Source of the DNA: an uncultured Rivularia sp.
GTDB lineage: Bacteria > Cyanobacteriota > Cyanobacteriia > Cyanobacteriales > Nostocaceae
DNA: 64,000 bases
Assembly: GCA_963665115.1 (NCBI GenBank)
Contig: OY762007.1
Span: 1,440,001-1,504,000, forward strand
Direction: 5' to 3'
The notes below the pieces were generated by a model. That model searched no databases. It was not told the origin of the DNA and saw only the letters and a list, made by a program, of their open reading frames with translations. Each line of letters opens with the position of its first letter. Position 1 is the first letter of the stretch. Below, in pieces: positions 8,372 to 40,914 of the stretch. The position numbers and the translations under genes were made by a program.

Positions 8372-8397
8372 TTTTGTATACTTTGTTTTATTGAAAT

Positions 8398-10128: not shown

Positions 10129-10163
10129 AATTTGCCTTTAACTTTTGACTTTTTTCCCGGCTA

Positions 10164-10820: not shown

Positions 10821-10835
10821 TTATTTTCCTCTAAT

Positions 10836-11918: not shown

Positions 11919-11953
11919 ATTTTTTGAGATTTTTTTAAATTAAAGTTCACAAA

Positions 11954-13386: not shown

Positions 13387-13388
13387 GA

Positions 13389-14255: not shown

Positions 14256-14260
14256 AATTA

Positions 14261-16032: not shown

Positions 16033-16742
16033 GGCTTTACCTCTGGTAATAAACTTAACCAAGCCTCATCGTTTTTCGTAATTTTTGGTAATCCTTTCCA
16101 GCGCAACCAACCCAACCCCGCAGACTTGCTACCACCCAGAGCATGAATATGATGTAAAGCTGCAATTATCAAAGGTTTAGCATAATTTGGGCAGTCTGGT
16201 TGTAGATGAATTTCTCCTTTAAAACTTAGTTGAGCATTTGCGGGAGAAGTTTCTAATAAATATAATTTTTTCTCATCTGCGGTACGTCTTCTGCGGTTAA
16301 TTGTCACCCCCGGACGCAATACTTCTGGTAAATCTACTGAGGCAAAATCACAAATTAGGTCATCAACAATAATTCGTGAAGGTAAAATCGGATTGCCAAA
16401 TATCTGAGAAACCAAACAGTGATATCCTCGATAGCCAGAAACTTGATAAGCTGTTCTAAACTGACTAGAAACTTCCGTTTCTTGAGGGCAAAGTGATTTA
16501 GCTGTGGGTGCAGAAAAGATTTGCCATCCCAAACAACGCGCCAATTTCTCGCATTCATGACGCAATCTGCCTTTAAGTTGAGAAGCTGGAATCAATAGTT
16601 GCCCTTGTGCATTACGCACAATAGGTTTGTCAGCTAAAGAACCACTCGATCCACCTGCACCTACACACAATGCACTATCAATTACAGCATTGAGAATAAT
16701 AGTATCAGTTTCTATTGAAGTAAGGTTATCCAAATCAATCAT
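16029..16742 (-). CDS. csm3: Cas7-family RAMP (Csm3 group)
   Basis: GSLADKPIV, LIPASQLKGRLRH, RPGVTINRRR, LGGSKSAGLG. Confidence 0.9.
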   Translation of the reverse strand: MIDLDNLTSIETDTIILNAVIDSALCVGAGGSSGSLADKPIVRNAQGQLLIPASQLKGRLRHECEKLARCLGWQIFSAPTAKSLCPQETEVSSQFRTAYQVSGYRGYHCLVSQIFGNPILPSRIIVDDLICDFASVDLPEVLRPGVTINRRRRTADEKKLYLLETSPANAQLSFKGEIHLQPDCPNYAKPLIIAALHHIHALGGSKSAGLGWLRWKGLPKITKNDEAWLSLLPEVKP

Positions 16743-23336: not shown

Positions 23337-23427
23337 AATGTACGGAAATAATTACCTAAATAATTCAATAGTTAAGAGCAGAAATAAAATTGCGAACATC
23401 AAATATATAAATTTAGGAAGATAGTAA

Positions 23428-24693
23428 ATGGCTTTTAATTCAAAAAAACCCCAAGTTTCGATTTATTATGTAGATATTTTTTCAATGGCAGTAGAAGTGC
23501 TGTGGAGTAATAAATTACGCACGGGGCTAACTATGTTAGGGATGATTATTGGTATTTCTTCTGTTATTGGTATTACTTCTATAGGACAAGGTGTGCAGAA
23601 AGCAACGGAAGAAGAAATTAAGTCATTAGGCACAAATGTATTACAGATATTCCCCGGTGACGCAGCTAGAGGAAATGTGAGTCAAGGATTGGGTTCGACA
23701 AGTACTTTAACTTGGGAAGATGCGAAGGAAATTGCTGCACAAGCGCCATCAGCAGAAGTTGTTTCTGCTTATTTACAACATCAAGGACAAGTGGTTTATG
23801 AAGAAAAAAACACTTCTACAACTATTTATGGTGCAGATTTAAATTATTCCGAAGCTAGAAATACTTATCCACAAATAGGAAGATATTTTAATCAAGAAGA
23901 ATTGAATGCTAGTAAGCAGGTAGCGGTGTTAGCTCCTACTGTTAAGCGTAATCTATTTGGGAATAAAAATGACGTTGTTGGTAAAACAATTAGGATTCAG
24001 GGTGAAGCTTATGAAGTGATTGGAATTATGGAAGCAAAGGGTTCCCAAGGTCCTATAGATAGAGATGATGGAGTATATATTCCACTCACAACTATGTCAG
24101 CACGAATTGTGGGTAACAATGCTTTATCTGGTATTTCAGTTAATACTATTTTTGTCAAATCGAGGAATCAAGAACAGCTTCTTGCTGCTCAATTTCAAAT
24201 TCAAAATTTGTTACGGATTCGTCATAATATCTACCCACCTCAAGGTGATGATTTCCGAATAACAAATCAAGCTGATATTATCAAAACTTTTACAAATATA
24301 GTTGGTTTATTGACTGTTATGGTGGTTGCAATCGCCGGAATCTCTTTGGTGGTTGGTGGGATTGGAATTGCCAACATTATGTTAGTGTCGGTGGTGGAAA
24401 GAACGCGGGAAATTGGGATTCGTAAAGCTGTTGGAGCAAAGAATTCTGCGATTTTAAATCAATTCTTGGCTGAGGCGATTATTATTTCTAGTTTGGGAGG
24501 TGTAATTGGCATGGGAGGAGGTATTTTAATTGCCTTTGGTGCGGCAACTGTTTTTAATATTCCTTTGGTTATTTCGGTTTATTCAATTGCTGTTGGTTCT
24601 GGACTTTCCTTTAGTGTTGGTTTATTAGCTGGAGTAATCCCCGCACGTAATGCTGCTAAGTTAGACCCAATAACGGCTTTGCGTAGCGATTAA
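23428..24693 (+). CDS. MacB/FtsX-family ABC permease
   Basis: NKLRTGLTMLGMIIGI, GGIGIANIMLVSVVERTREIGIRKAVGA, PARNAAKLDPITALR. Confidence 0.95.
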   Translation: MAFNSKKPQVSIYYVDIFSMAVEVLWSNKLRTGLTMLGMIIGISSVIGITSIGQGVQKATEEEIKSLGTNVLQIFPGDAARGNVSQGLGSTSTLTWEDAKEIAAQAPSAEVVSAYLQHQGQVVYEEKNTSTTIYGADLNYSEARNTYPQIGRYFNQEELNASKQVAVLAPTVKRNLFGNKNDVVGKTIRIQGEAYEVIGIMEAKGSQGPIDRDDGVYIPLTTMSARIVGNNALSGISVNTIFVKSRNQEQLLAAQFQIQNLLRIRHNIYPPQGDDFRITNQADIIKTFTNIVGLLTVMVVAIAGISLVVGGIGIANIMLVSVVERTREIGIRKAVGAKNSAILNQFLAEAIIISSLGGVIGMGGGILIAFGAATVFNIPLVISVYSIAVGSGLSFSVGLLAGVIPARNAAKLDPITALRSD

Positions 24694-24933
24694 AAATACC
24701 CGCAGCCTAGAAGGCTAGGGCTAATATTACAAAGCCCACCTGCGTGGGCTAAATTCAGCGCATTATTATAAAGTATGTTAACTACACTTTTACATTTAAT
24801 TTTTGATAATAACTGAAAATAGTCTAACGTATCATCAATGTAATCATAATTTACGACAAATATTGATATTGAATTTACCGATTTACTTAAACATATTTAC
24901 TCAAAGTTTGTAATCTTTTTTTTTGCAAAAATT

Positions 24934-25593
24934 ATGATTTATCTAGAATCTATTTCAAAAAACTATCGTTTAGGAGAAGTGGAGATTGCTGTACTCAAAG
25001 GCATTAACTTGTCTATAAAAGAAGGGGAATATATCGCTATCATGGGTGCATCTGGTTCTGGCAAATCTACTTTAATGAATATTCTTGGTTGCTTGGATCG
25101 TCCAACAGCGGGAGAATATATTTTTGAAGATAGAAATTTAAGTAGTTTTGATGATGATGAGTTAGCATATATCCGCAATCAACGGATAGGTTTTATATTT
25201 CAACAATTTAATTTATTACCCCGCTCAACTGCAATAGAAAATGTGATGTTGCCAATGATTTATGCTAATGTTCCGCAGCAAAAACGCCGCGAATATGCAG
25301 AACAAGCATTAGTAAAAGTCGGATTGGCAGAACGCATATTTAACCGTCCAAATCAACTCTCTGGGGGACAACAGCAAAGAGTGGCGATCGCACGAGCATT
25401 AGTTAATCAACCAGCTTTAGTTTTAGCGGATGAACCCACGGGTGCATTAGATAGTCAAACATCCCAAGAAGTAATGGATTTGCTATCAGAATTAAATCAA
25501 CAGGGAATCACAATTGCTATCGTAACTCACGAACAAGAGATTGCCGCTCAAACAAAGCGAATTATTAAAGTTCAAGATGGTTTGATTATCTAA
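24934..25593 (+). CDS. MacB/LolD-family ABC ATP-binding protein
   Basis: GASGSGKST, LSGGQQQRVAIARAL, LADEPTGALD, VTHE. Confidence 0.95.
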   Translation: MIYLESISKNYRLGEVEIAVLKGINLSIKEGEYIAIMGASGSGKSTLMNILGCLDRPTAGEYIFEDRNLSSFDDDELAYIRNQRIGFIFQQFNLLPRSTAIENVMLPMIYANVPQQKRREYAEQALVKVGLAERIFNRPNQLSGGQQQRVAIARALVNQPALVLADEPTGALDSQTSQEVMDLLSELNQQGITIAIVTHEQEIAAQTKRIIKVQDGLII

Positions 25594-25664: not shown

Positions 25665-27480
25665 TCACTTCATATTATGATTTACCAAGGTCATATCAGT
25701 CTTAATATTATTTGCCAATTGTAGGGAATAGAGATTTGCATATACTCTGTTTTGACTGATTAATTCTCTATGGGTACCCTCTTCGACAATTTGTCCTTGC
25801 TGAATAACTAGTATCCTATCTACACTGGTGACAGTAGATAACCGATGAGCAATAATAAAGCTGGTACGTCCTTTGAGCAAATTCGCTATAGCTTGTTGAA
25901 CTAACTGCTCTGTTTGGCTGTCGATGTTACTCGTTGCTTCGTCTAAAATCAAGATTCGCGGGTTTACCAAAACTGCACGGGCTATACTGATTAACTGTTG
26001 TTGTCCTTTACTCAGATTTATTCCACGTTCTCCTAATTGAGTATCGTAACCTTGGGGTAAGGTCAAGATAAAGTCATGAATATTTGCAATCTTTGCAGCC
26101 ATTTCAATTTCTGTTGCTGTTGCTTGGGGATTTCCGAAAGCAATATTTTCGGCAATGCTACAGCTAAAAATCACGGTTTCTTGGGAGACTATACCAATTT
26201 GACGACGTAAACTTGCTTGAGTGACTTTTCTAATATCTATTCCATCAATTTTGATTGCACCATCTGTAACATCATAGAAGCGAGAAAGTAAACTGATTAT
26301 GGTCGTTTTCCCTGCACCTGTTGCTCCAACTAATGCAATTGATTGTCCCTGGTTGAGCATGAAAGTTCACTTTATCTATAACTTTTTGACTGGGTTTATA
26401 CTCGAAAGACACTTGCTCGAACTCTACTTTACCCTGAATTGATGGCATTGTAATTGCATCTGTAGCATCTTGAAGTTTGACTGGTTGATCTAAAAGTAAA
26501 AAAATTCTTTCTAATCCGGCTAATGCAGATTGTGCTTGAGTATAGAAGTGGCTGATAATTTGGATGGGTTGAAAAAATTGCTGCACGTAAATTACAAATG
26601 CGGTGACTGCTCCTACTGTCATGACATTTGTGTAAGCTAGAAATCCTCCACAGGCTAATACAATAGCAAGAGCAAGTGTATTTAGAAAATCGATTGTTGG
26701 TAAAAAAGCAGAAGTAATTGCTGTAGCTTGAATATTCGCATTGCGGTTATTTGCGTTAAGTTGACGAAATTCTTGAAAGCTCAGTTGTATGCGGTTAAAT
26801 CCTTGAACTTCCTGAATATTGCTAATATCTTCTTCCACTTTGCTAGAAAGTTGAGAAATTGTTTGTCTGGTGACTCGAAATTTTTCCCTAGCTAAACGTG
26901 CAAAAAATGCTGTTGCTAATAACATTATAGGTATCATTAAGTTTGTGAATAAACCTAATTTTAAGTTGATGGAAAGCATAACTATTGCGCTTGTCAATAA
27001 GCCAAAAAAGCTGCCAATAACTTGTGGTAATATAGGGCTGAGTAACTGATTTAATGTATTGATATCGCTCAGTAATCGACTCATTAAATCACCAGCTTTA
27101 CTGTTATCGAAAAAGCTGAGAGGTAATGCTTGTAATTTGTTCATAATATCTTGCCGTAATTGAGCGAGTATACGCTGCATGATTACACCAACACGAGCAA
27201 TCAAAATACGACTACATATAAATCCAATTAAATACAATATTGCCAGCAGCAATAACATCCAAGCGAGTCCAGATAAGTTGTTTTTAATAACTAAGTTATC
27301 TATTGACCAACCAAAAATAAAAGGTGGAATTGCTTGGGTAATAGAGCTAACAAGAATTAAACCAAAAATTAACGGAATCTCTTTCAAATATGGATGGAAG
27401 TATTTAGCAAAACGATGGATAACAGGTAATGATTGATTTACCTTAGAAGTCGATTTAACAAAAATGTGAGATTTATTCAT
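25665..27480 (-). CDS. ABC exporter subunit (TMD-NBD) carrying the catalytic Glu/His of a heterodimer; +1 frameshift at ~26346-26349
   Basis: TMD followed by GATGAGKTT, LSKGQ, LILDEATS, IAHR; deleting one base gives HAQPGQSIALVG. Confidence 0.9.
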
Positions 27481-27640: not shown

Positions 27641-29362
27641 TTAAAAACCTGAATATTGCATTGCGGTGAGTTTATCTTTTACAACTAATTCCCCTTCATC
27701 AATAATAAATATTTTGTCGGCTTGACTAATTGTATTGTTGATACGTTGGGTGAGATAAATTAAGGTATATTCACGCTGTTGCTTGAGAATATTTAAAGAG
27801 TTCTGAATTAATGCTCCTGTCTTGGCATCAACCGCAGACAAACTATCATCTACAATCAATATTTTATAGTCGTTTAGTAAAACACGAGCGATAGCAATTC
27901 TTTGTCTTTGTCCCCCCGATAAACCAATTCCTCTTTCTCCAATCACAGTATCGTAACCATCCGATTGGGTAATAATAAAATCGTGGATTTGAGCAAATTT
28001 AGCTGCTTCAATTACTTTTGATAAAGGAGCATCTGGCATTCCATAAGCGATATTTTCACGGATAGTTCCAGAAAATAAATTAGCGTCTTGAGAAATAAAA
28101 CCGATGTGAGAGCGTAAATCAATTAAATTTAAACAGCGAACGTCATACCCATCAATCCTTACCGTTCCATTGGTTGCATCGTAAAAGCGTGGTATCAATT
28201 TAGCAATTGTACTTTTACCTGCTCCCGTCATACCTAGAATTGCGACTGTTTCTCCTGGCTGAATTTCAAATGAAATATTTTTGAGAGTATTTTCTTGCAC
28301 TTCAGAATAGCAAAAATTAACATTCTCAAAAGAAATTTTACCTTTACATCTATTCAAACTAATTGCATTTGTAGATTCTTTAATTTCAACCACAGTATCT
28401 ATTACTTGATAAACCCTAGTGACTGATGCTGCGGCTTGAGCAACCGATGAAAAAGCTAAACTAATTTGAAGAATTGGTTGAACCATGAATAATAGATATG
28501 AATTAAATGCAATCAATTTACCAATCGAAAATTCACTGCGAATTACTTCAAAACCTCCAAATCCAAAAATCGCCACTCCCAGCAAATTAGTTAATAAAAA
28601 GATGACAGGAAAAGTATCTCTAAGGACATAAATTGTTTTGATGCTTGTGGAAAGGAATTCCTGGTTGAACGCAGCATAACGTTTTATTTCTGTTTCTTCC
28701 CGTACAAAAGCTTTGATTGCACGCACTCCCAGTAAATTTTCTTTTAAAACTGTATTTAGCTCATCTAATTGTATCTGCACCTTATTAAATAATGGAGCAT
28801 TTTTATGAAAAAAACCGCCCAGCAATATCAATGACATTGGTATAACTAACAATGCTATTAAAGCTAACTTCCAATTCATTAATAGTAAGATGATTGCGCT
28901 GCTCAATAACATAATCGCAGCACCGAAAATTTGTAATAGTGTTGTAGCAATGAAAATGCGAATTTGTTCGATATCATTACTAATACGGGTAAGTAATTGG
29001 GATGTAGAGGTACGTTCTTGATAAGCTAAATCGAGATTTTGAGTTTTGTGAAAAAACTGATTTCTCAAGTCATAAGCAACACCTTGAGATACCGTCTCAC
29101 TCAAAAAACTTTGACCAAAATTGAATAATCCCCTTACTAAAGCCAGTAAAAGCATTAATCCCCCACAAGTCAGAATCACTCGTAAGTCATTTTCTTTTAT
29201 ACCCGCATCAATACCCCAGCCAATCAGTTGAGGAGTCAAAATATTCGCAACACTCAGCATTAACAAACTGGCGATCGCACCGAATACCATTCTGGGGTAT
29301 TTCTGCAACATTGCTACAACTCGTTTGAGTGATTCGATTGGTATATCTGGTTTCTGTTTCAT
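27641..29362 (-). CDS. ABC exporter subunit (TMD-NBD) with degenerate Walker B/H-loop, heterodimer partner
   Basis: GMTGAGKST, LSGGQRQR, Walker B IVDDSLS (E to D) and TQR (H to Q), as in TM287/288-type heterodimers. Confidence 0.9.
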   Translation of the reverse strand: MKQKPDIPIESLKRVVAMLQKYPRMVFGAIASLLMLSVANILTPQLIGWGIDAGIKENDLRVILTCGGLMLLLALVRGLFNFGQSFLSETVSQGVAYDLRNQFFHKTQNLDLAYQERTSTSQLLTRISNDIEQIRIFIATTLLQIFGAAIMLLSSAIILLLMNWKLALIALLVIPMSLILLGGFFHKNAPLFNKVQIQLDELNTVLKENLLGVRAIKAFVREETEIKRYAAFNQEFLSTSIKTIYVLRDTFPVIFLLTNLLGVAIFGFGGFEVIRSEFSIGKLIAFNSYLLFMVQPILQISLAFSSVAQAAASVTRVYQVIDTVVEIKESTNAISLNRCKGKISFENVNFCYSEVQENTLKNISFEIQPGETVAILGMTGAGKSTIAKLIPRFYDATNGTVRIDGYDVRCLNLIDLRSHIGFISQDANLFSGTIRENIAYGMPDAPLSKVIEAAKFAQIHDFIITQSDGYDTVIGERGIGLSGGQRQRIAIARVLLNDYKILIVDDSLSAVDAKTGALIQNSLNILKQQREYTLIYLTQRINNTISQADKIFIIDEGELVVKDKLTAMQYSGF

Positions 29363-29472: not shown

Positions 29473-30663
29473 TTATCTCGTTTTCAAATCAGCAAGAAAC
29501 CGGGTTTCTTTGGCTTGTTGAGAATGGTGTAAGATATCAGATAAACCAACTTTTTCTTTGTGGATTGATGTTTGACTTATTTTGTTAGATGCTTGCTTTA
29601 CTTCATTCGCAGTTAATAGCGCAGTCAGTGCATCGATAACATAGTTGCTTTCCGCAAAACTATCGGTAGCTTCTTCTTTAAAAAAGCGTTGCACCTTTTG
29701 CAATTCGGAAACTAAAGAATCTCTATCTCCTTGGATTACCAACTGTGCTAAGCGGTTATTAGTGTTTGCAAATCTAGCAATCGCGTTTCGTCTTTCTTCT
29801 GTTGTTAGGATGATATCGACAATCATTGGTGCAGACTGAGCAATTAAACGGCTAATAATGCCAATTTCTTGTCTATAAACGGGAGTAGAAAAATCTAAGC
29901 TTCTATCTATTTTGACAGCTTCTTCTGATAAAAAAGTACCTAAACTCAAGGTTGTAAAGTGGCGAATTGCTTGAACGATTACCATTATCTGGTCGTGTTC
30001 TTCCGATGTTGAAAAAATTAATTTACCACCTTCATTTTTAATCAAATCTAAAAACCATTGGAAACTTTCTTGCATCCGACCCGGACATACGATAATTTTT
30101 TGAGATAAGAAGGATTCAACCCCAGGAGCAAACATTGGATGTAAGCCAATTACAGCCCCGCTATGATGGGAAAGCATAGCTTGCAAAACCGGAGATTTAA
30201 TACTAGTTATATCGGCTAAAGCTGTTGTGGGAGAAAGATATTGAGAGGCTTTTTTAATTACTTCTAAAGTACAATCAATGGGAACGCAAATTAAAACTAA
30301 ATCTACTTGACTGAGTAAATATTCAGCTTTATCCCAATCGTCATTATCTAGGATATTAACATCATGTCCGGCAGTAAGTAATTGTTGAGAAAAAAAGCGT
30401 CCCATTGCGCCTTTTCCACCAATTACAGTTACCCGTCGCGGTTTTGTTAGGCTTAAAGTTGCTTTTTTACGAGCAAGAGCAGCGGTACAACCTACAACTA
30501 TATTTTGCCAAATTAAATTAGGAACACCAGCCTGTTGAAGCATTATTTGATAATTATGTAATGTTGTTTCTAAATCAAAGGTAGATGATTCATTTAAAGC
30601 CGCGATTCTTTTACCTAATAGCTGAATTATTTCTCGGTCAATTTGTCTAAGTTCTTGTTGCAT
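29473..30663 (-). CDS. tyrA: Chorismate mutase-like / prephenate dehydrogenase TyrA
   Basis: LRQIDREIIQLLGKR CM-like N-terminus; VIGGKGAMG, ADITSIK, GLHPMF, EEHDQIMVIVQAIRHF. Confidence 0.9.
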   Translation of the reverse strand: MQQELRQIDREIIQLLGKRIAALNESSTFDLETTLHNYQIMLQQAGVPNLIWQNIVVGCTAALARKKATLSLTKPRRVTVIGGKGAMGRFFSQQLLTAGHDVNILDNDDWDKAEYLLSQVDLVLICVPIDCTLEVIKKASQYLSPTTALADITSIKSPVLQAMLSHHSGAVIGLHPMFAPGVESFLSQKIIVCPGRMQESFQWFLDLIKNEGGKLIFSTSEEHDQIMVIVQAIRHFTTLSLGTFLSEEAVKIDRSLDFSTPVYRQEIGIISRLIAQSAPMIVDIILTTEERRNAIARFANTNNRLAQLVIQGDRDSLVSELQKVQRFFKEEATDSFAESNYVIDALTALLTANEVKQASNKISQTSIHKEKVGLSDILHHSQQAKETRFLADLKTR

Positions 30664-30901
30664 TTTATCAATTACCTAGTGATATTTATTATGAGTTATT
30701 CGCTAGCAGAAGATTTATAACAATAAACCGCAGAGAGCGCAGCGAAAAGTATGGTCTTGGGGGTTTCCCCCATGAAAAACTTTTCAAGACAGAGGAAGAA
30801 GTTTAAGAGAGATGGCTGTAAAAATCTTTTTTCTCTCCCCCTCTTCCTCCTCTCAATAAAATTCGTTAATCTTCTATTACTACAAAAGTAATTATTGACG
30901 T

Positions 30902-31498
30902 TTAAGAAACATCTTCAATTTCAGTTTGGACGGTTTCTTCAAATTTTACGGGTCCCATAGTAATAGGAAAGTTCCAGTAGGGATGAACGGATATTAACGC
31001 TTGATTTGGAACGTTTTTTGGTTGAGCTACGGAGTTGTTAAAGGTATTCTGTGGATATCGAAAACGAACTGATAATGCATATTTTGATTTGCGAGCAACT
31101 TTTGGTACAAAAAGAATAAACTCATCATCTTGGGGAGAGTCTGAAGAAAGATTGGGAGAAGCTTTGACTAATTCCGGACGGAGTAAACTTACAATAGTTC
31201 GAGCTTCATCATGAGTTGTTCTTTCAGGACTTTGGAAACCATGTTCGGAAATTTCATCTTCAATATTGAGGTTATATTCTGGAACGGAAGCATAATATTC
31301 ACTCAACATATCGGGACGAATTGGCGCTCCTCCTTTAATTGAATCATCAAAGATAAAATAGCCATTTACTTTATCACCGTTGAAATTAAATTTGTGTAGA
31401 GCAGCGTGGGCTGGGAGGTTAATCATAATTCCCTGAATCAAAAAGATTGCGACACCTAAAAATAATACAAATGTGATTTTTTGCCAGATTTTCATCAT
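30902..31498 (-). CDS. Secreted hypothetical protein, paralog A
   Basis: Signal peptide ending PAHA; ALHKFNFNGDKVNGYFIFDDS similar to the neighbouring gene. Confidence 0.75.
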   Translation of the reverse strand: MMKIWQKITFVLFLGVAIFLIQGIMINLPAHAALHKFNFNGDKVNGYFIFDDSIKGGAPIRPDMLSEYYASVPEYNLNIEDEISEHGFQSPERTTHDEARTIVSLLRPELVKASPNLSSDSPQDDEFILFVPKVARKSKYALSVRFRYPQNTFNNSVAQPKNVPNQALISVHPYWNFPITMGPVKFEETVQTEIEDVS

Positions 31499-31594
31499 TC
31501 TTTCTCCTATTAGTTAAAAATTAGATTCGTATCAATTATTGATAATCAAAGATACTTAGAGGGGAATTATTAATCTTGAATTCCCCTGAAATAA

Positions 31595-32200
31595 TTAATC
31601 GGAAATCTTTTCAATCTTAGTTTTCACTTGTCCCTTAAATAATGCTTTACCCAATGTTCTGGGGAAGTTTACTTTGGGAAATATTTCAACTTCAGCAGTA
31701 CTTGGAAAACTAGTTGGTAACTCAGTTGAACCATGAAACGTTTCTACTGGATACTTAAAATAACTTACCAAGGAATATTTCGACTTTGGCTGTCTTTCAA
31801 AACTGCGTACTTGTAATAGGAAAAGGTCCTTTGGTTCAAAATCTTGACGCTTCTCTTCTTTTCCGTATGCTTTATCGTGTTCTGCTTTGATTTTTGCTAG
31901 GGTTTTATCTTCTTTACGTGCTAACATCACTACCGCATTACTAACTGTTCCGTCGAAAACTCCTTTTTCACCTAAATCAATTTTGTAATCCCTTCCTCCA
32001 CCATAATATTGAGTCATATAAGGTGACTTTGTTTCACCTTTAGCAGAGTCATCATAAATCATGTAACCATCCACTCCTTCACCATTGAAAGTGAACTTGT
32101 ACATAGCAGCTTGAGCGGGAGTCGTGTTAAATGTTCCTTGAACTAGTAACACTGCAAAACTAATCGCAACCACAATAAATAATCTTTTCCAAAAAGCCAT
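31595..32200 (-). CDS. Secreted hypothetical protein, paralog B
   Basis: Signal peptide ending PAQA; AMYKFTFNGEGVDGYMIYDDS; shares SKY.L...F.YP and NFP...G...F...V.T.IE with paralog A. Confidence 0.75.
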   Translation of the reverse strand: MAFWKRLFIVVAISFAVLLVQGTFNTTPAQAAMYKFTFNGEGVDGYMIYDDSAKGETKSPYMTQYYGGGRDYKIDLGEKGVFDGTVSNAVVMLARKEDKTLAKIKAEHDKAYGKEEKRQDFEPKDLFLLQVRSFERQPKSKYSLVSYFKYPVETFHGSTELPTSFPSTAEVEIFPKVNFPRTLGKALFKGQVKTKIEKISD

Positions 32201-32504
32201 TTTCTTTATCTCCTGTAATCTTTTAATGATGGTGTGATGATATTTACTGACGTTTTATGCTCTGAAATAAAACATCTCTCTTTACCTCTTTCCTTCGCGC
32301 TCTCCGCGCTCTCTGCGGTTATTTAAAGTTTGTAGTAAGTGCTTTAGCGCTCCGAATTTCATACTACGAACCCATCAAAATTAATGTGGTATTGACAGTG
32401 GTATTTTTCATTAGTTCTGAGGGATTAATTATTGTTTATACATGAGGGTTTTAGCCCTAAATATTTGGCGCTAAAGCGCAACTACGAACTAATAATGAAA
32501 TAAA

Positions 32505-33257
32505 CTACTTACTTGTGCCTTCTAATTTTTTTAGATTGAGAATTTTTTCACTAGGCGACAATTCTTTTAGAGGTAAAATGTTATATTCCTCTTTAATATC
32601 TGCAAGAGGTCGATTCCACATCTCTTCCCAACGAATAGCCCAAAGAGGACGAGCAGCACGTCCGCGCTGCCAGCCTTCAAATAGCGCTTCTAAGGCTAAA
32701 TCTAGTTGCTTTGTTTCCACGGTTGCAAAGTGCAGAACCAACGCAGTCATCAAAAACGTTTGGTAAACTGTTGCTCCTTGACCGTGATAAAAACCTTGAA
32801 GCGCTAATTCTCCCAGCGTATCGGCATTGTAACCAGTAACAACGTGCCAGATATCATGAGTTTGCATCTTACGCAGTTTGATATAGCTTGCGTCATCGGG
32901 GGATTCAAAAGCGGTATAGTCATAAGCGGGAATACCGTTTGCAATCATGTGATGATAATAAACATAGCCCAAACTACCCGGAGGACATTGATTTTTGAGG
33001 TCTTCTAATCTATACTCAGGTCCAAAATAGCGTTGCTCAATCATCTCTGCCATTCCGGGACTAAGACGCAATTGCTCAACGTATTCGCAAGTTTGTATTT
33101 CTTCCAAATGTCTTGTAACTTCTTCGAGCTTGAAATAATCTTGCAGTTCTGAATCGTTAGGATTTGCTGCTATAGATAAAAAAGCTCTGATAAAATTGGG
33201 GTCGTTGAGTAGAGATTGCGAATTGGGTAGGATACTAATTTTCTCTGTTATCTGCAT
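32505..33257 (-). CDS. Coq4-family protein
   Basis: PPGSLGYVY and the metal-binding HDIWH-x11-E motif (THDIWHVVTGYNADTLGE); C-terminal RWEEMWNRPLADIKEEYNI. Confidence 0.85.
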   Translation of the reverse strand: MQITEKISILPNSQSLLNDPNFIRAFLSIAANPNDSELQDYFKLEEVTRHLEEIQTCEYVEQLRLSPGMAEMIEQRYFGPEYRLEDLKNQCPPGSLGYVYYHHMIANGIPAYDYTAFESPDDASYIKLRKMQTHDIWHVVTGYNADTLGELALQGFYHGQGATVYQTFLMTALVLHFATVETKQLDLALEALFEGWQRGRAARPLWAIRWEEMWNRPLADIKEEYNILPLKELSPSEKILNLKKLEGTSK

Positions 33258-33301
33258 AAAAACTCCTTTGAAGATACGAGTAGATGTGAATTGGAATTAA
33301 C

Positions 33302-33344
33302 GGTGACTGGGAAAAATTAGAAATTACTTTTGTACCCAGTCACC
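33302..33344. other. Intergenic stem-loop
   Basis: GGTGACTGGG...CCCAGTCACC perfect 10-bp inverted repeat. Confidence 0.6.
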
Positions 33345-33364
33345 AAAAATATCTAAAAATATGC

Positions 33365-34492
33365 TTAATGAGTCAGAAGAATCCTTTCCTGGGGTTGGGA
33401 AAAGCTCACTCCAGGAGCAGGGGCTGGTCCTAATGCAACATCACCCCAGCGCATTACGCTTGCACCGGCATTTGATGAGGAACCCATTGTATAAACAAGA
33501 ACTAAATCATTTTCTCGAATCTTACGGGATTCAGCGGCGTGATAAAGGTTCGCAATCGGAAATGTCGGCCCAATATTTGCATACAGGGGATTGAGGTTAA
33601 TTGTGCGGTCTGGGTCTATTCCTAATGCACGAGTACAAACTCTGGAATACCAAGCGCTGGGAGTGTTGAAGGCAAAAAAGTCAATTTCATCTAAGCTGAC
33701 ATCAGCAGCCGCAATCGCGCCATGACAGCACAACCGAATAAACTTGACTGTGGTTTCGTTAAACATTTTGCTTGCCCCTTTACCACCACGGATGAACATT
33801 TTAATGTTGCCTTGCTCGTCAGTGGTGAATTCGTTGTAAAAGGCACCGCAGGTAGCAGCGGTATTCGCAATTTTACTACCCAACACTCCCTGGTTTTCTT
33901 TTAAACTACCAACTACAAACGCTCCCGCACCATCACCCGATAAAAATGCCAGGGTATCATTTTCGTCAGTATAGCGAGAGTAAGTAGTTGAAACCACTAC
34001 CAAAACATTGCGGTATTCTCCCGTTCTGACCAGGGAGCAAGCAGTCTGGAGCGAAACTAACGCCGAAGTGCAGGTTGATTCTATATTCCATGCCGCATTT
34101 TGCAACCCTAATTTACCCGCGAGGAAAGCAGCATTCCCTGGTGTAACTTGTTCGGGAAACAGGGAAGTAACCAACATCAAATCAACATCTTCGGGTGCCA
34201 GCTTTGCCGCTTCGAGTGCATCCATCGCCGCGCGGTATTCTAGAGAAAGCGAGGTTTCATCCTCAGCTACCACCCGCCTTTCTACCGTACCGCGAAACGG
34301 GTCTGACATATAGGGTGCTAGTTCTTGCGACCAGATATCTGTGGAGCCGTCGGGTGCAAATAATCTTGCTAAAGTCTTCTTTTCGGCTACAGCCACCATC
34401 TCCGGATAATTCTCTCGATAATAATCGTTAGTGCGGATGATGCTGGGAAAATTAACGGCGATCGCCCGAATGCCAACTGGTTGTAAGTTCAT
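33365..34492 (-). CDS. FabH/KAS III-like enzyme, furanolide synthase (CybF-like)
   Basis: NIESTCTSAL catalytic Cys, GDGAGAFVV, FNTP replacing the usual His, YANIG; cluster context. Confidence 0.85.
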   Translation of the reverse strand: MNLQPVGIRAIAVNFPSIIRTNDYYRENYPEMVAVAEKKTLARLFAPDGSTDIWSQELAPYMSDPFRGTVERRVVAEDETSLSLEYRAAMDALEAAKLAPEDVDLMLVTSLFPEQVTPGNAAFLAGKLGLQNAAWNIESTCTSALVSLQTACSLVRTGEYRNVLVVVSTTYSRYTDENDTLAFLSGDGAGAFVVGSLKENQGVLGSKIANTAATCGAFYNEFTTDEQGNIKMFIRGGKGASKMFNETTVKFIRLCCHGAIAAADVSLDEIDFFAFNTPSAWYSRVCTRALGIDPDRTINLNPLYANIGPTFPIANLYHAAESRKIRENDLVLVYTMGSSSNAGASVMRWGDVALGPAPAPGVSFSQPQERILLTH

Positions 34493-34581
34493 GATTTTTC
34501 TCCTTTAAATTTAATAGCTATCGGTAAATGAGGTATTGATCCAAACGGTTTAAGTCCCCCACCATGCGCCGCGATAACTGT

Positions 34582-36345
34582 TCACTGTTCGCTGTTAGCT
34601 GAAATAGCTCCTTGTTGGATGAGGCTGCGAATTCTAGCACCAATGGGAGCGGGTTGTGTGGGGTCTAAATTAATGTCAATTACAAAGGGAACTGTGGCAG
34701 CAAGGGCTGTTATTAAGGCTGCTTCGAGTTCCGACTCTCGGTCAACGCGGATACCGTCTGCACCCATTCCCCGCGCTAACTGAACAAAATTTGTACTCGG
34801 TATTTCAGTATCCACCCCTGTAAATCCTTGTAAATTCATACCTTGGGCGCACATATTGTAGCGTCCGTCATTAAGTACAATCCACACGGCAGGAATTTTG
34901 AATCGAACTGCGGTACTGACTTCGCTATTCATCAACATTGCACCGTCTCCCACAATGGCAACAGCTTTACCATTCCTTCCCCAAGCCGCTCCGACTACTC
35001 CGGTAACGGCATGACCCATTGCTCCCACACCAGTACTAATTCGGTAGCGCCCCGGTTGTTTAAAGCACAGTCGATTAGTTGCCCAAGCAAAGGAATTTCC
35101 GGCTTCAGCCAAGATTACAGCATCGCTACCATCAACGATAACCTGTTGAATTGTATCCATTAAAACTTCCGGTCTGACTAAACCATTATGGGAAGAAATC
35201 TGTTTTTGCTCTGGATGGGGCAGTGTTGGTAAATTTCCAGGACGTAGGGGAAAGTGAGATAATAGAGATTTCAGAAAAGCTTTGACTTCCGATTGAATTG
35301 AGAAAATTGATGCTTCCGGGTAAGCAACTCCAGGTACTTCCGGGTCAATATCTACATGGATAAACCCACCAGCAGGTACCATTTGCGGATTCCAGAACGA
35401 AGTTGGTTCTCCCAAACGGGTTCCCAAAACCAGGATGCGATGGGGTTGCTGCTCCTGCATATATGCGAGAACAGAACTATGACCGCTAAACCCAGTCACA
35501 CCGACAAATTGCGGATGATTTTCGGGAAAAACGCCTTTAGCACGGGGAGAACACATCACCGCAGCCCCAGTACGCTCCGCTAATTCGCGAATTTCCGCAG
35601 CTGCACCTCTAGCACCGAAACCAACCCAAATTGCAAAGGGTTCCTGAGAAAGTAAGCGCACGCATTCAACAGTTGTATGTTCGCTAGGGGCTAATTCCCC
35701 ACAAGTAAACCCAGTTTGGTACTTTACCGCGCATGGTGTAGTTTGAATTGGAGTCGGAATACTGATATGGGCAACAAAACCCCCCGGTTGGGATAAACCT
35801 CGTGCCAATCGTCGGGAAATTTCCGGGATTTCATCTCCATTCTCCACAATCGTAGCGTAGTTAAATAATGCTCCAGGGGTAAACAAACCCGAAATCGGCA
35901 TAGTATGAGCGCTTGTTTCTTGACAAGCCCAACGTCCGCGATTTCCCGTTGCAGTTGCCGCAGAGATTAGAATTACCTTGGCACCTTCTCCCCTAGCAGC
36001 CAACAATCCAGTCAGTACATTAGTGATACCCGGACCCGTAGTAACGAATACTACCACCGGACGATTGCTAGCAAAGTAAGCTTCACAAGCTGCAAAAGCT
36101 GCTCCCGACTCGTGGCGAAAATGGAGAACTTGAATATTGCTGCGGTTGAGCGCTGCCCAAAGTGGTCCAATACCACCTCCAGAAACACCGAATGCAGATT
36201 CCACCCCCATATCTTCCAACATTTTGACCGCAGTTTCTCCAACTGTCAGTTGAGTTGGTGTTAATTGGGTGATTTGTTCATTTCCAGGTGGGGAGAAAAT
36301 TGAAGATGTAGATGATTTTGTAATTTGATACGATTTGGTATTCAT
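34582..36345 (-). CDS. ThDP-dependent acyloin synthase (CybE/ScyA-related)
   Basis: RHESGAAFAA, TTGPGITN, ThDP motif GDGAMLM...VLND. Confidence 0.88.
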   Translation of the reverse strand: MNTKSYQITKSSTSSIFSPPGNEQITQLTPTQLTVGETAVKMLEDMGVESAFGVSGGGIGPLWAALNRSNIQVLHFRHESGAAFAACEAYFASNRPVVVFVTTGPGITNVLTGLLAARGEGAKVILISAATATGNRGRWACQETSAHTMPISGLFTPGALFNYATIVENGDEIPEISRRLARGLSQPGGFVAHISIPTPIQTTPCAVKYQTGFTCGELAPSEHTTVECVRLLSQEPFAIWVGFGARGAAAEIRELAERTGAAVMCSPRAKGVFPENHPQFVGVTGFSGHSSVLAYMQEQQPHRILVLGTRLGEPTSFWNPQMVPAGGFIHVDIDPEVPGVAYPEASIFSIQSEVKAFLKSLLSHFPLRPGNLPTLPHPEQKQISSHNGLVRPEVLMDTIQQVIVDGSDAVILAEAGNSFAWATNRLCFKQPGRYRISTGVGAMGHAVTGVVGAAWGRNGKAVAIVGDGAMLMNSEVSTAVRFKIPAVWIVLNDGRYNMCAQGMNLQGFTGVDTEIPSTNFVQLARGMGADGIRVDRESELEAALITALAATVPFVIDINLDPTQPAPIGARIRSLIQQGAISANSEQ

Positions 36346-36354
36346 GTTTTTAAT

Positions 36355-36405
36355 TAGTAATTGGGGATTGGGGATTGGTAATTGGTAATTGGTAATTGGT
36401 AATTG
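36355..36405. repeat. STRR heptamer repeat (TTGGGGA/TTGGTAA)
   Basis: ttggggattgggattggtaattggtaattggtaattggtaatt. Confidence 0.8.
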
Positions 36406-36487
36406 TTACTCACTTCTGGCTTTAAGCCGACCTATTTTTCTCTATCTCTCCAACTCTTTCCTCTGCGGTTTTTTTAATCAGTAATCA

Positions 36488-38038
36488 TCAGAGCGGAAGC
36501 AGTAATTGGGAATTGGTAATCGCACATTCTTGCTGGCGCAAAAATCTTTTCATCACCTTCCCCGTCGGATTTTTTGGTAGTGAATTAACAAATTGAATTT
36601 TTTGGGGAATTTTATATGCTGCCATTCTTTGATTGCAAAACTGAATTATTTCTAATTCGCTAATTTGACTGTTGGCTTTGCAGACAATATTGGCTTTAAC
36701 TATTTCCCCTTTAATCGCATCGGGAACTCCATAAATTGCAACTTCTGCAACTGCATGATGTTGGTAAATTACATTTTCTACTTCTGTAGGATATACTTTA
36801 AACCCAGAAACATTAACCATATCTTTTAAACGGTCGGCAATGTAGAAAAAGCCTTCTTCATCCATACGACCAATATCACCACTATGCAGCCAGCCATTTT
36901 TAATTACTTCTTGAGTTTCTTCAAGACGCTTCCAATAACCGAGCATGACATTGGGACCTTTAATAATTATCTCCCCCAATTCTCCCGGTGATACCTGATT
37001 TCCATCACTATCAACAACTTGCATTTGGACATTTTCGATAGGCATTCCAATGGAACCAAACTTATATTTTAAATTGTGGTTATAGCTAGCGCAGGGTGAT
37101 GCTTCTGTTAAACCGTATCCTTCATGAATCACTTTTTTATACTTTTCTTGCCACATACGAGCAATTTCTACGGGCATGGGAGCGGCAGCGCTAAAATAAT
37201 AACGCAAGCTGCTAAAGTTATATTTAGAAGTGTCTTGATTCAGCAATCGGATAAATACAGTTGGTACTCCAAAAAACATTGTTACCTGATATTTATCAAT
37301 GCTTTCTAAAGCTACTTCTAATTCAAATCTTCTTTGTAAAATGATAGTCGCACAAACATTTAATCCAGCGTTGAAAATTGCATTTTGACCGAAGCAATGA
37401 AACAAAGGTACATATAGCAGCAATCTATCATGTTGATTCATCCCAGAACAGCGATTGTGTGCGGAGATATTAGAAATAATATTACCGTGGGAAAGAGTTG
37501 CACCTTTAGGAAAACCCGTAGTTCCAGAAGTATAGACAATACTAGCAGGAGAATCCCATTCCATCTCTACAGCGCGAGCTATGGGAGAAGCATTTTCAAT
37601 CAAAGCTGTAAATTCGATATCTTTATCTTTCTCTACCGTACCCTCAGCAATCAAAATATGCTGTAAATGAGGTAAATCGCTATCAACTAAGTGCAAACGT
37701 CCCGATGCTGTGGTCACAATTGCTTTAGCAGTACAATCATTCAGAACATAACTAACCTCAGCCGACTTAAACATTACATTCAGGGAAACTGCAATCGCGC
37801 CAATTTTCAAAATTCCTAAATAGGCAATAGCAAACTCCGGTATATTTGGCAAGAACAAAGCAACGCGATCGCCTTTTTCAATCCCCAATCCCCGCAATGC
37901 ATTAGCTGTACGATTAACTAATTGGTCAAAATGCTTGTAGGTATAAAACTTATCTTCGTAAATTATTGCGGTCTTGTTGGGAAATAGCCGATGACCGCGT
38001 TCGACATGATGTGCGATATTCATAATTTTAAAGGTCAA
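36488..38038 (-). CDS. Acyl/aryl-CoA ligase (4-coumarate-CoA ligase / CybC-like)
   Basis: YTSGTTGFPKG, EGYGLTE, HSGDIG, DRLKDMV, PKNPTGK; true start may be MNIAHH at 38023. Confidence 0.92.
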   Translation of the reverse strand: MTFKIMNIAHHVERGHRLFPNKTAIIYEDKFYTYKHFDQLVNRTANALRGLGIEKGDRVALFLPNIPEFAIAYLGILKIGAIAVSLNVMFKSAEVSYVLNDCTAKAIVTTASGRLHLVDSDLPHLQHILIAEGTVEKDKDIEFTALIENASPIARAVEMEWDSPASIVYTSGTTGFPKGATLSHGNIISNISAHNRCSGMNQHDRLLLYVPLFHCFGQNAIFNAGLNVCATIILQRRFELEVALESIDKYQVTMFFGVPTVFIRLLNQDTSKYNFSSLRYYFSAAAPMPVEIARMWQEKYKKVIHEGYGLTEASPCASYNHNLKYKFGSIGMPIENVQMQVVDSDGNQVSPGELGEIIIKGPNVMLGYWKRLEETQEVIKNGWLHSGDIGRMDEEGFFYIADRLKDMVNVSGFKVYPTEVENVIYQHHAVAEVAIYGVPDAIKGEIVKANIVCKANSQISELEIIQFCNQRMAAYKIPQKIQFVNSLPKNPTGKVMKRFLRQQECAITNSQLLLPL

Positions 38039-38048
38039 AGGTTGAAGG

Positions 38049-39765
38049 TTAAAGGTTAACTGATTTCAAAGCGGATAAAACTTCTGAGATTGCAGTAACA
38101 ATTTGTCCGCCACGAGTAACATCGTCAGCAATTTTACTAATATGAGAATCTAAACCTTGCTCGTTGTCATCCCATATATAAGGACGTTCTTTACTTGGTG
38201 GTCTGCCAACAACATTCCGAACTGCCATGTATAAATCTTGAGTAGCGGGTGATAAAGTTGCACGAGCATCATAATGTCCCGCAACTGCATAGGTACGCAA
38301 ATCCACCGATTGCACCCCAAACATCAAAGCTAAAGCGATATATTGTTGAAAAATCTCTACACTGGTTCGCGCTAAATTAGCTGAAGCAAACCCCTGACTA
38401 TTAATATTCTGGTTGTATTGTTCTGCATGGGTAGGAAATCTGTCAGCAATAGAATTTCCATAGAAGGTTAACAAAGGCATAATCGAATTACCAGTAATTT
38501 GCAATCCCTTTAAACCCATATTCACAGTACGCTGTTGATTTCCAACTAGGGACGGAGACAATCCATTATTAAACTCCGGAGCCACTAAATAAGCGATTTG
38601 TACATCTAAATGTTTGGCTAACATTCCAATGTGATAGCGCAATCTATCCATTCCCACACCAATGTACTGTCCCAGAAAATTGCCCCCATGATAACTAGCT
38701 TGATTTTCTACATCAATTAACGGGTTATCGGTGACAGAATTTATTTCTATCTCCACCTGTTTGGCAATATCTTCGATACCGTCTACAATCGGTCCCATAT
38801 ACTGTGCCAGACAGCGTAATGAATAACGATCCTGAATGGGATTTTTACCTCGATAATTGTGGGAACCATCTAACTCATCGCGAATTAACCCAGAAACCTG
38901 CCAACAATTCCAGCATTTGGGAAGCAGCCCAAACTTGCCCGGAATGGGGTTTTAGTTTATGAATATATTCGTGAAAAGATTGATTAGTACCTTCCAAACC
39001 TTGAATTGTTAAAGCATGGGTTCCGACGCTCAAAGCTAATAAAATTCTCGTATCTTGGACGCAATTAGCCGCAATTCCAGTCATTACAGAAGTCCCATTC
39101 ATCATTGCTAATCCTTCCTTGGGAAGTAATTGCAACGGCTCTAAACCCAGCTTTTGCAGTGCTGTTGGTGCATCCATTTCTTCACCGTCAAAATCTACGA
39201 TGTAGCTGGAATTTAAACCAATTAATGCTCCAGAAATATACGCTAAAGGTGTTAAATCCCCACTAGCACCAATCGAACCAAATTCGGGTACATGAGGAGT
39301 AACACCAGCATTTAAGAATATCAGCATCCGCTTGATGAGTTCCAGACGAATACCCGATGCACCAGCAACGTGAGAGTTAGCACGTAACAGCATCGCAGCC
39401 CGAACATCAGCTAGAGGTAACTTGTTTCCCGCACCCACCTTGTGATAGCACATCAAATTATTTTGTAGTAAAGTCGCAGATTCCGGCGAAATTACCACAT
39501 TTGCCATCCCACCAAAACCAGTAGTCACCCCATAAATTGGCTCCCCCGATTCAACAGCATCGCGGATAAAATCGCAGGATGCTTGAACATTGGCTAATTT
39601 TTCCAGATTTTCAGTTAAACGTACCCGTACTCCATAACGCGCTACACTTACCACTTCCTCAATCGTAAGTTGGCGATCGCCAACAATTACCGCAGCATCC
39701 GAATTATTTAAAAAAGTAAACTGTTTTGAGGAGACATTGTTTTGAGTTAAGCGAGTTGCATCCAT
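38049..39765 (-). CDS. MIO-dependent aromatic amino acid ammonia-lyase, probably tyrosine ammonia-lyase (CybB-like); +1 frameshift at ~38894-38896
   Basis: GSIGASGDL (ASG/MIO), IYGVTTGFG, close to cyanobacterial PALs; YH at the selectivity positions (LMCYHKVG) instead of PAL FL; removing one base restores GSGLIRDELDG...QDRYSLRC and joins both ORFs. Confidence 0.88.
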
Positions 39766-39798
39766 GTTGTTGACCTAATATTTTTTACAAGAGAGGTT

Positions 39799-40914
39799 TT
39801 AGCGTAAACAAAGACCAGATACTTCTGAATCTATAGATAGTTGTTTGGAAGTAATGCAGGGCTGATGCTGTTCCCAGCGACCGAAAAATTGACTCAAATG
39901 ACTTATTTCCCGCATTAATTGGGCAAAACTAGCAAAATCAAGTGACTGAGGACCATCTGAAAGCGCTTTTTGAGGATTGGGGTGAACTTCCACCATCAAA
40001 GAATCGCAACCAGCCGCAATAGCAGCCTTTGCCATTGGACTAACCAGTTCAGATTTACCAGTAGCGTGACTGGGATCAACGACAATTGGCAGGTGAGTTA
40101 GATTGCGTAAAACAGGAATTGCAGATATATCTAAAGTATTGCGAGTATACTTCCTGTCGCAAGTTCTAATTCCCCGTTCGCAGAGAATCACATTGGGATT
40201 TCCCGCTGCCAAGATATATTCTGCTGACATCAGCCATTCCTCAATCGTGGCTGATAAACCTCGCTTCAGCAACACCGGCTTATTAGTTGCACCGATTTTT
40301 TTCAAAAGTGAAAAATTTTGCATATTGCGGGCACCAACTTGGAGTATATCTGCAACCGATGCGATCGCCGATAATTCAGAACCATCCATCACTTCAGTAA
40401 TAATTCCCAAACCAGAAACTGACCTAGCAGTTGCCAACCATTCCAAAGCAGTCTCTCCATGTCCTTGGAAAGCATAAGGAGAAGTTCTGGGTTTGTAAGC
40501 ACCTCCCCGGAGAAACTTTGCACCTGCGGCTTTAACTTGCAGCGCAGTTTCCACAATCATCTCTTCGCTTTCCACAGAGCAGGGACCAGCAATTACAACT
40601 AGAGGATGATTTTGACCGAAAGTAACATTCCCAGAAGGAGTCGAAACTTTAATATTACTGGGTTCACCATAGCGAAACTCCAAACTAGCTCGTTTGAAAG
40701 GCTTATTTATCCGCAGCACCTGCTCAATATAAGGACTTAAATTTTGCACCTGTTGTAAATCGATTTCCGCCGTATCACCAACCAAACCAATAGCTACTTT
40801 ATTTTTCCCTCTAGATACTTCTGGTAAAATATTCCAGCGTCGAAGTTCCGTACATAATAATTTAATTTCTTCTTGAGGACAACCAGATTTAACGACGATA
40901 ATCATTGTTTTCAC
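39799..40914 (-). CDS. aroF: DAHP synthase type I-beta with N-terminal regulatory domain (CybA-like)
   Basis: IAGPCSVES, RGGAYKPRTSPY, QVGARNMQNF, CERGIRT, VDPSHATG, EVHPNP. Confidence 0.95.
   Translation of the reverse strand: MKTMIIVVKSGCPQEEIKLLCTELRRWNILPEVSRGKNKVAIGLVGDTAEIDLQQVQNLSPYIEQVLRINKPFKRASLEFRYGEPSNIKVSTPSGNVTFGQNHPLVVIAGPCSVESEEMIVETALQVKAAGAKFLRGGAYKPRTSPYAFQGHGETALEWLATARSVSGLGIITEVMDGSELSAIASVADILQVGARNMQNFSLLKKIGATNKPVLLKRGLSATIEEWLMSAEYILAAGNPNVILCERGIRTCDRKYTRNTLDISAIPVLRNLTHLPIVVDPSHATGKSELVSPMAKAAIAAGCDSLMVEVHPNPQKALSDGPQSLDFASFAQLMREISHLSQFFGRWEQHQPCITSKQLSIDSEVSGLCLR

Follow-up and report, generated by a model that had tools for sequence, protein, structure and literature searches.

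A 64,000-nucleotide stretch from an uncultured Rivularia sp. (assembly GCA_963665115.1, contig OY762007.1, positions 1,440,001 to 1,504,000 of the forward strand), hereafter the window, carries a genuine furanolide-type gene cluster, and the evidence for the assignment of its core enzymes is strong. Furanolides are small lactones that include cyanobacterin, an algicide and photosystem II inhibitor, and the nostoclides, which are cell-density signals. Alongside the furanolide core, the region has dedicated genes for precursor supply and export, and its probable product is a phenol-bearing gamma-benzylidene butenolide without halogen, which the cell is predicted to export. Gene content, gene order, homology, motifs and linkage were read directly from the DNA, and the chemical steps, substrates, export and role of the secreted proteins are predictions built upon them.

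Furanolide clusters, whose products are trisubstituted furan-2(5H)-ones, are defined by four signature genes, encoding an ammonia-lyase, a coenzyme A (CoA) ligase, a thiamine diphosphate (ThDP) enzyme and a CybF-type synthase, and these four core genes suffice for furanolide formation in Escherichia coli (PMC13288894; this and the other sources given by accession are cited for those parts of them that were accessible). All four are clustered in the window. A scan of GTDB genomes yielded 186 relatives of the synthase, the nearest named ones being Rivularia records, and the best 80 of these 186 were kept for comparison; loci are denoted below by L numbers. L045, the UTEX 2349 record, has the gene list drawn for the cyanobacterin (cyb) cluster and serves as its reference. 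The mac type is represented by L120, which is matched by gene list and not by comparison with the mac sequences themselves: it encodes 3-deoxy-D-arabino-heptulosonate 7-phosphate (DAHP) synthase, the core, AroH, tyrosinase, a secreted protein, an NAD(P)H-binding protein and PcyA, as published. L060 is the ncl reference, and its lyase is near-identical to the Nostoc punctiforme phenylalanine ammonia-lyase (PAL) structure PDB 2NYF.

The original prediction, made from the bare sequence, had proposed a core of the cyb type, and this is borne out by L045, where the shared genes stand in the same order and are 64-71% identical (DAHP synthase 71, lyase 71, ligase 67, ThDP enzyme 66 and synthase 64%). 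The lyase, ligase, ThDP enzyme and synthase are 72, 68, 62 and 68% identical to the mac-type copies and 70, 66, 64 and 63% identical to the ncl-type copies, while the three references are 68-76% identical to one another in the synthase and 64-67% in the ThDP enzyme. Residues C141, N276 and N306 of the synthase are invariant in 29 homologues and form the CybF-type Cys/Asn/Asn set, as opposed to the Cys/His/Asn of FabH. A grouping with non-furanolide enzymes would have spoken against the proposal; a quick tree, whose 45 rows comprised L120, outgroups and 38 of the 81 synthase rows (a separate tree of all rows was also made), placed the synthase in a CybF-like clade that is separate from FabH with a Shimodaira-Hasegawa-like approximate likelihood ratio test (SH-aLRT) value of 100. 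Within this clade, the window belongs to a branch that is distinct in both the synthase and the ThDP trees and that is defined here as the 35 of 80 loci with a synthase at least 80% identical; the loci, some of them short, extend at most 10 kb to either side. Of the 382 genomes of the taxonomic family, 189 have CybF-like genes and 39 have the branch, which is about one in ten of the family sampled, lichen symbionts included.

The ThDP enzyme is 60% identical to the genome's own ScyA-like gene and scores 924 with the ScyA equivalog model (NCBIfam), below its cutoff of 1020. Scytonemin biosynthesis and primary metabolism (acetohydroxyacid synthase, FabH) were rejected as roles of these genes on the basis of model cutoffs and separate genomic copies. 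Elsewhere, CybF-like genes lie by a chorismate-binding enzyme and nonribosomal peptide synthetase modules, without a lyase or ThDP gene (L074, L077, L079 and L080), which suggests reuse in another type of pathway. In the congener G019, a second, divergent pair of ThDP enzyme and ketoacyl-acyl carrier protein synthase (KAS) is present at L087:8287-11184, with 48% identity to the window synthase, altered active-site motifs and neither lyase nor ligase.

Predicted substrates and product

The lyase retains the catalytic Y78, the Ala-Ser-Gly triad (residues 167-169) of the 4-methylideneimidazole-5-one (MIO) prosthetic group and the selectivity pair Tyr107-His108, which is identical to that of CybB. 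CybB deaminates tyrosine (PMC13288894), a lyase with Phe-His at this position is a tyrosine ammonia-lyase and a His-to-Leu change turns it into a PAL (PMC8750797), and the two solved cyanobacterial PALs (Anabaena and Nostoc) have Phe-Leu. Among 65 lyase rows, 49 show Tyr-His and 16 Phe-Leu, and 29 of the 30 lyases seen in the window's branch are of the Tyr-His kind. Since the pair is shared with CybB, the lyase likely uses tyrosine, in support of the tyrosine-derived product originally proposed. The only branch locus with a Phe-Leu lyase is L025 (3049-4755), which suggests a lyase swap.

TyrA yields 4-hydroxyphenylpyruvate directly. The gene is found in 27 of the 35 branch loci vs 6 of the 45 others, and two further DAHP synthase paralogs are located elsewhere in the genome. 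The CM_2 family matches only residues 3-22 of the window TyrA (E 0.014), so its chorismate-mutase part is likely degenerate; an unlinked AroH (58% identity) could be the source of chorismate mutase for it. An unlinked tyrosinase (45%) is encoded in the genome as well. By analogy with CybBCEF, DAHP synthase and TyrA would increase the availability of 4-hydroxyphenylpyruvate and tyrosine, the lyase would convert tyrosine to 4-coumarate and the ligase would activate it to coumaroyl-CoA. The ThDP enzyme would join two 2-keto acids into an acyloin, and the CybF-type enzyme would O-acylate this acyloin and achieve ring closure through a Morita-Baylis-Hillman step and a hydride shift.

On this analogy the alpha group is likely 4-hydroxybenzyl, and the choice at the beta position is less clear-cut. 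A second hydroxybenzyl group, leading to a hydroxylated triaryl lactone of the maculalactone type, appears to be slightly the better bet, and a branched alkyl group, leading to precyanobacterin, is the less favoured though quite credible option. CybE and CybF take only aliphatic beta donors, and the mac enzymes prefer 4-hydroxyphenylpyruvate as beta donor. Position 314 of the ThDP enzyme corresponds in the alignment to the Arg in the GARFDDR loop of acetolactate synthase, a residue with an active-site role. It is Pro in the window and in two enzymes of aromatic pairs, the mac type and ScyA, and Phe in CybE and the ncl type. Pro314 is a weak hint to the substrate of the beta group. A prediction of the ThDP substrates from discriminating columns was tried and abandoned, as it ended in a tie.

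The absence of halogenase, methyltransferase and P450 genes nearby, as originally noted, was confirmed by tblastn of the window: proteins of related clusters found no relatives of halogenase, O-methyltransferase, cytochrome P450, Rieske, tyrosinase or multicopper oxidase genes in it at E<=0.05. In the genome, the CybI and CybD copies of L045 have no match at E<=1e-5, and Rieske matches reach at most 34% identity and are unlinked to the cluster. Tailoring in trans was rejected, given that the P450, methyltransferase, halogenase, oxidase and major facilitator superfamily genes of the branch are without close orthologues in the genome (best 28-34%).

Secreted proteins, exporters and gene layout

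The two secreted proteins S1 and S2 are the one real puzzle of the cluster. These paralogs have N-terminal hydrophobic stretches, AxA sites and signal-peptide-like starts, and family scans gave no Pfam or NCBIfam match. S1 is modelled by AlphaFold with confidence as a barrel-type beta fold. When ligand-binding barrels of the dirigent or lipocalin type were considered as relatives of S1 and S2, Foldseek returned no match at E<=0.001 and structural alignment gave generic barrels; the best Atlas score of S1 (0.86) is a lead only. The family is present in 34 of the 35 branch loci vs 1 of the 45 others, and S1 and S2 are retained as a pair of distinct subtypes in seven related loci. An S1/S2 profile matches 56 of the 382 family genomes, and the 39 strong matches are exactly the 39 genomes with top synthase scores, a ranking that is partly circular because both profiles were built from the branch and the genomes overlap with the 80 loci. 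The circularity does not extend to adjacency, and S1/S2 and the synthase are at most 7 kb apart in 38 of the 39 strong-match genomes. Five weak matches were fetched and consisted of four stand-alone genes and one decayed cluster.

A pattern developed here for the PEP-CTERM-like tail (PEP motif, membrane helix and basic tail) detects it at the C-terminus of 58 of the 77 family members, and Pfam PEP-CTERM matches on two Nostoc copies fall just below the cutoff. The tail is present in all 21 loci with a multicopper oxidase and absent from the window S1 and S2, from all eight loci with an ABC exporter pair and from two loci with MacAB in line. Because the tail-less loci belong mostly to one subclade, tail loss represents one or two events and not ten. 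S1 and S2 likely bind the product outside the cell. A bolder scheme, which is advanced as a long shot, would have the branch finish or handle its furanolide extracellularly, with the S1/S2 barrels as dedicated furanolide-binding proteins. The Nostoc form would be anchored at the surface beside a multicopper oxidase and steer the radical coupling of a phenolic lactone, as plant dirigent proteins do with laccase, and the window form would supply anchor-less soluble carriers beside ABC and MacAB exporters. If true, this would add a new extracellular step to furanolide chemistry and give a function to an unannotated cyanobacterial protein family.

Export genes had been anticipated in the original prediction and are indeed present, but beyond the 29473..40914 region to which it had confined the cluster. 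One subunit of the ABC pair has a degenerate and the other a consensus Walker B motif, which is the pattern of heterodimeric drug exporters. Both the pair (29362-25665) and the convergent MacAB set (21834-25593) travel with the cluster in relatives, and together they likely export the product. All genes named in the original prediction lie on the minus strand from 40914 to 29473 in the order stated, with intergenic gaps of 10-304 bases; its end at 29473 did not hold, as the ABC pair and the MacAB set extend the unit to 21834. Gene calling thus gives twelve co-oriented minus-strand genes (40914-25665) and a facing set of three genes (Table 1). The full order, with every gene intact, recurs in L002 and is therefore not due to chance; G019 has the same order minus the DAHP synthase gene. 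Scans for promoters and terminators gave numbers expected by chance (44 vs 49 and 15 vs 14, respectively).

Table 1. Genes of the furanolide cluster and the facing exporter set, in window coordinates.
Predicted product	Position	Strand	Supporting data
DAHP synthase (CybA/MacA-like; shikimate entry)	39799..40914	-	NF009933 624 bits, cutoff 486; 71% to L045 copy
MIO ammonia-lyase, CybB-like, predicted tyrosine-specific	38049..39765	-	PF00221 in two pieces; one extra base at 38894
Acid-CoA ligase (CybC-like; predicted 4-coumarate:CoA ligase)	36488..38038	-	PF00501 and PF13193; 67% to L045 copy
ThDP acyloin synthase (CybE-like, ScyA-related)	34582..36345	-	NF035927 994.7 bits, cutoff 1000; 66% to CybE (L045)
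KAS III-fold furanolide synthase (CybF-like)	33365..34492	-	64% to CybF (L045); below all FabH cutoffs
Coq4-like metal-binding protein; optional accessory	32505..33257	-	PF05019
Secreted S1, predicted beta-barrel, PEP-CTERM-linked family, tail-less here	31595..32200	-	AlphaFold pLDDT 86
Secreted S2, S1 paralog, also tail-less	30902..31498	-	33% identity to S1
TyrA prephenate dehydrogenase (predicted 4-hydroxyphenylpyruvate supply)	29473..30663	-	NF008400 286 bits, cutoff 273
ABC exporter subunit 1; degenerate Walker B (DD)	27641..29362	-	73-97% to copies in 8 related loci
ABC exporter subunit 2; consensus Walker B, altered signature	25665..27480	-	extra base at 26347
MacAB-type adaptor, permease, ATPase, convergent on cluster	21834..25593	+	macB orthologues 85-98%, same position, 6 related loci

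The accessory set had been called non-standard, which overstates the case: DAHP synthase is also part of the cyb (L045) and mac clusters, and a figure published in 2018 shows aroF, tyrA, aroH and genes of unknown function. Accessory genes differ in frequency between the 35 branch loci and the 45 others, respectively: AroH 22 vs 14, P450 22 vs 8, multicopper oxidase 21 vs 0, Coq4-like protein 8 vs 1, methyltransferase 5 vs 2 and halogenase 1 vs 6. Eukaryotic COQ4 is an oxidative decarboxylase. The Coq4-like protein of the window matches Alr8543 (PDB 6E12, E 5e-25) and keeps the metal motif HDxxH(x)11E (H134, D135, H138 and E150) as defined in bioRxiv 2023.11.13.566839. It is probably dispensable, since it is patchy across the branch loci, and a role on an acyloin acid is a guess. 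In two branch members, L031 and L117, a halogenase and three P450s in tandem stand with three or four genes of the S1/S2 family; with this richer tailoring, these loci are better candidates for new chemistry than the window. A decayed copy of the cluster at L112:6408-12045 consists of DAHP synthase, synthase and S1/S2 fragments; what remains of its TyrA is fused to the first of the ABC genes, and the second is intact.

Further genes surround the cluster in the window. At 3736-7054 (minus strand), two open reading frames (ORFs) encode a VioB-like iminophenylpyruvate dimer synthase (TIGR04492, 744 bits, cutoff 1250), with no other violacein genes recognised beside it, and a type III CRISPR-Cas operon (Cas6, Cas10, Csx7 and Csx10; type III-D-like) is located at 7256-19108. 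Two-partner secretion (TPS) accounts for the region 41235-62622, where a ShlB/FhaC pore, a CHAT-TPR protein and a serralysin-like protease accompany three genes with TPS domains, one of them split near 57430. In 14 of the 80 related loci, from several genera, a TPS gene is situated divergently upstream of the cluster.

Alternative readings and sequence breaks

Several observations weigh against the proposed product and its extracellular handling. The window's branch (SH-aLRT 98) includes none of the cyb, mac-type or ncl-type references, and deeper forks are unresolved in the quick tree. The literature searched, which did not include the 2022 cyanobacterin paper or the mac gene table S1, either of which may list the branch, reports no product for it. 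The mac enzymes prefer phenylpyruvate at the gamma position despite available 4-hydroxyphenylpyruvate, so that gamma hydroxylation is unsure, and the accessory genes of mac were without effect in E. coli (PMC13288894). The 13 ThDP columns that separate the aromatic from the aliphatic references split 6:6:1 in the window, and position 314 is a post-hoc pick of two enzymes vs two. S1 and S2 are without a clear structural relative, the best VIA-align hits (Z 6.9, root-mean-square deviation 3.1 over 95 residues) being generic barrels only. In a rival reading, the same core yields a product already known, either precyanobacterin, which would draw on 4-coumarate, 4-hydroxyphenylpyruvate and a branched keto acid, or a hydroxylated maculalactone that has been seen by mass spectrometry. 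Such an outcome is considered rather unlikely, though it is the most serious competitor. A tyrosine lyase without tailoring enzymes is the input set of precyanobacterin (PMC12395478), precyanobacterins I and II have been isolated from a natural producer (PMC12481558) and the ThDP enzyme has a slightly higher identity with CybE (66%) than with the mac type (62%); however, the CybE-type Phe314 and Asp499 are not conserved in it, and TyrA, which is retained in most branch loci and absent from the cyb locus, hints at a greater aromatic demand. A departure from the scaffold itself, such as an acyloin ester left open or a pigment formed extracellularly by oxidative coupling of the lactone (compare scytonemin), seems improbable: the distinct position of the branch in both trees, the confinement of the secreted family to it and the addition of a multicopper oxidase in 21 of its 35 loci would fit, but the catalytic-site motifs agree with CybF, and an oxidase gene is missing from the window subtype, with the genome's nearest one unlinked and 28% identical. 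An unhalogenated, phenol-bearing butenolide remains the preferred reading.

The cluster could also be a true pseudogene set that makes no compound in this strain, as the lyase and exporter subunit 2 are each broken by one extra base. The former break had been flagged for verification in the original prediction and is confirmed in the assembly. Read through with an X, the lyase is a stop-free protein of 571 residues that is 98.9% identical to the intact copy of L001; the lyase gene is intact in L001, L002 and G019, and exporter subunit 2 in L002. Four sequencing runs, X1 to X4, all of them contigs from one study and X4 a more distant strain, were compared. Both insertions are absent from X2 and X3, whose listed long contigs are otherwise free of differences, and the lyase insertion is also absent from X4. 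A further point against an intact pathway is that X1 agrees with the window at both breaks, at a depth above 200. Genuine loss would also be in line with the four other genes split or shortened in L001, several indels in accessory genes of X4 and the decayed remnant in L112, which demonstrates that loss of the same cluster occurs. Yet breaks are found genome-wide at the same rate. In a control of 400 kb of G019 (237 ORFs, 86 of which aligned well enough), 16 of the 86 genes are frameshifted in the window's genome, 15 by insertion (14 by +1 and one by +2) and one by -1, and they include uvrB and pgk (phosphoglycerate kinase); this rate predicts 2.3 breaks for the cluster, which has two. A tblastn recheck of six broken control genes gave two matches in different frames for five and a truncated match for one. 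A 9 kb control stretch around uvrB contains three extra bases, of which X1 lacks one, that in uvrB, and X2 and X3 lack all three, and hence all five extra bases tested. Since control genes are broken at the same rate and the near-identical X2 and X3 are without the extra base, the lyase break is most likely a consensus or assembly error that is not specific to the pathway, and the lyase is likely intact in the living strain. A real insertion-prone lineage may be the alternative to a consensus error, all runs being from one study. The equal break rate led to the rejection of cluster-specific pseudogenisation as the main explanation, and a truly inactive cluster is accordingly given little credence.

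Assembly-wide, about one frameshift occurs per 6 kb of coding DNA, nearly all being single-base insertions in short runs (L108:7577, 9399 and 10375), and the VioB-like gene and one TPS gene of the window are likewise split. Other split genes reported from this assembly consequently need checking, given this rate of spurious frameshifts. In L001 (11387-18847), the closest relative, either decay or assembly error has split TyrA and the two ABC genes and shortened the Coq4-like gene; its lyase is intact.

Comparison with known clusters

In the literature found, cyb, ncl and mac are the cyanobacterial furanolide clusters tied to products (further literature basis: PMC8777810, PMC13500791 and bioRxiv 2021.06.06.447205). 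The exporter subtype of the window was not found in the literature searched, within the limits given above for the branch product, and the branch itself has already been noticed in print, in the 2018 figure. Its chemistry is probably one more congener of a known class. The window subtype provides the simplest entry point to the branch, with no tailoring enzymes and an intact copy in L002, and the strict link of the branch to an unannotated secreted family is directly testable.

The cyb cluster shares with the window DAHP synthase, a Tyr-His lyase, the CoA ligase, the ThDP enzyme and the synthase. A methyltransferase, an NAD(P)-binding protein, a Rieske oxygenase, a halogenase and a tyrosinase are found only in cyb, whereas the Coq4-like protein, S1, S2, TyrA, the ABC pair and MacAB are found only in the window. 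A cyanobacterin cluster proper is excluded by the absence of the halogenase, methyltransferase and Rieske genes. The scytonemin pathway includes the acyloin synthase ScyA with its own TyrA and secreted proteins. The window ThDP enzyme resembles the genome's ScyA-like gene at the 60% identity given above, and that gene has a TyrA paralog about 12 kb away; the lyase, ligase and KAS III of the window, in contrast, are not scytonemin genes. The mac cluster of Nodularia sp. NIES-3585 has a chorismate mutase and a DAHP synthase and, in the accessible part of its description, lists no halogenase (PMC13288894). As judged through L120, it resembles the window in the four core genes (62-72% identity), the DAHP synthase, a second aromatic-supply gene and ThDP residues Pro314 and Cys142. 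It differs in its Phe-Leu (cinnamate) lyase, AroH, tyrosinase and different secreted proteins, and in being without TyrA, Coq4-like protein and ABC pair. The window is not a maculalactone cluster proper, as its lyase is of the Tyr-His type and AroH and tyrosinase genes are elsewhere in the genome. The Nostoclide N (ncl) subcluster of Nostoc punctiforme (PMC9324945), represented by L060, likewise has the four core genes at 63-70% identity, but it uses a phenylalanine lyase, its locus lacks DAHP synthase, TyrA and S1/S2, and it adjoins a polyketide subcluster.

Among the closest known systems are clusters of lichen Nostoc 210A and 232, labelled aroF, PAL, CYP, LC-FACS, ilvB, fabH, unk1-3, aroH, tyrA and sufI in Fig. 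S20b of PMC5987646 (2018), the accessible part of which gives no experimentally assigned product. From strain names and gene content, L024 and L021 are inferred to be these putative 'nostoclide-like' clusters of 210A and 232. Unlike the window, they contain a P450, a multicopper oxidase and one more PEP-CTERM protein, keep the S1/S2 tails and have no ABC pair. Like the window, they belong to the same branch, with a synthase at 84% identity, a Tyr-His lyase and two S1/S2-family genes after the synthase, and L024 also has tyrA.

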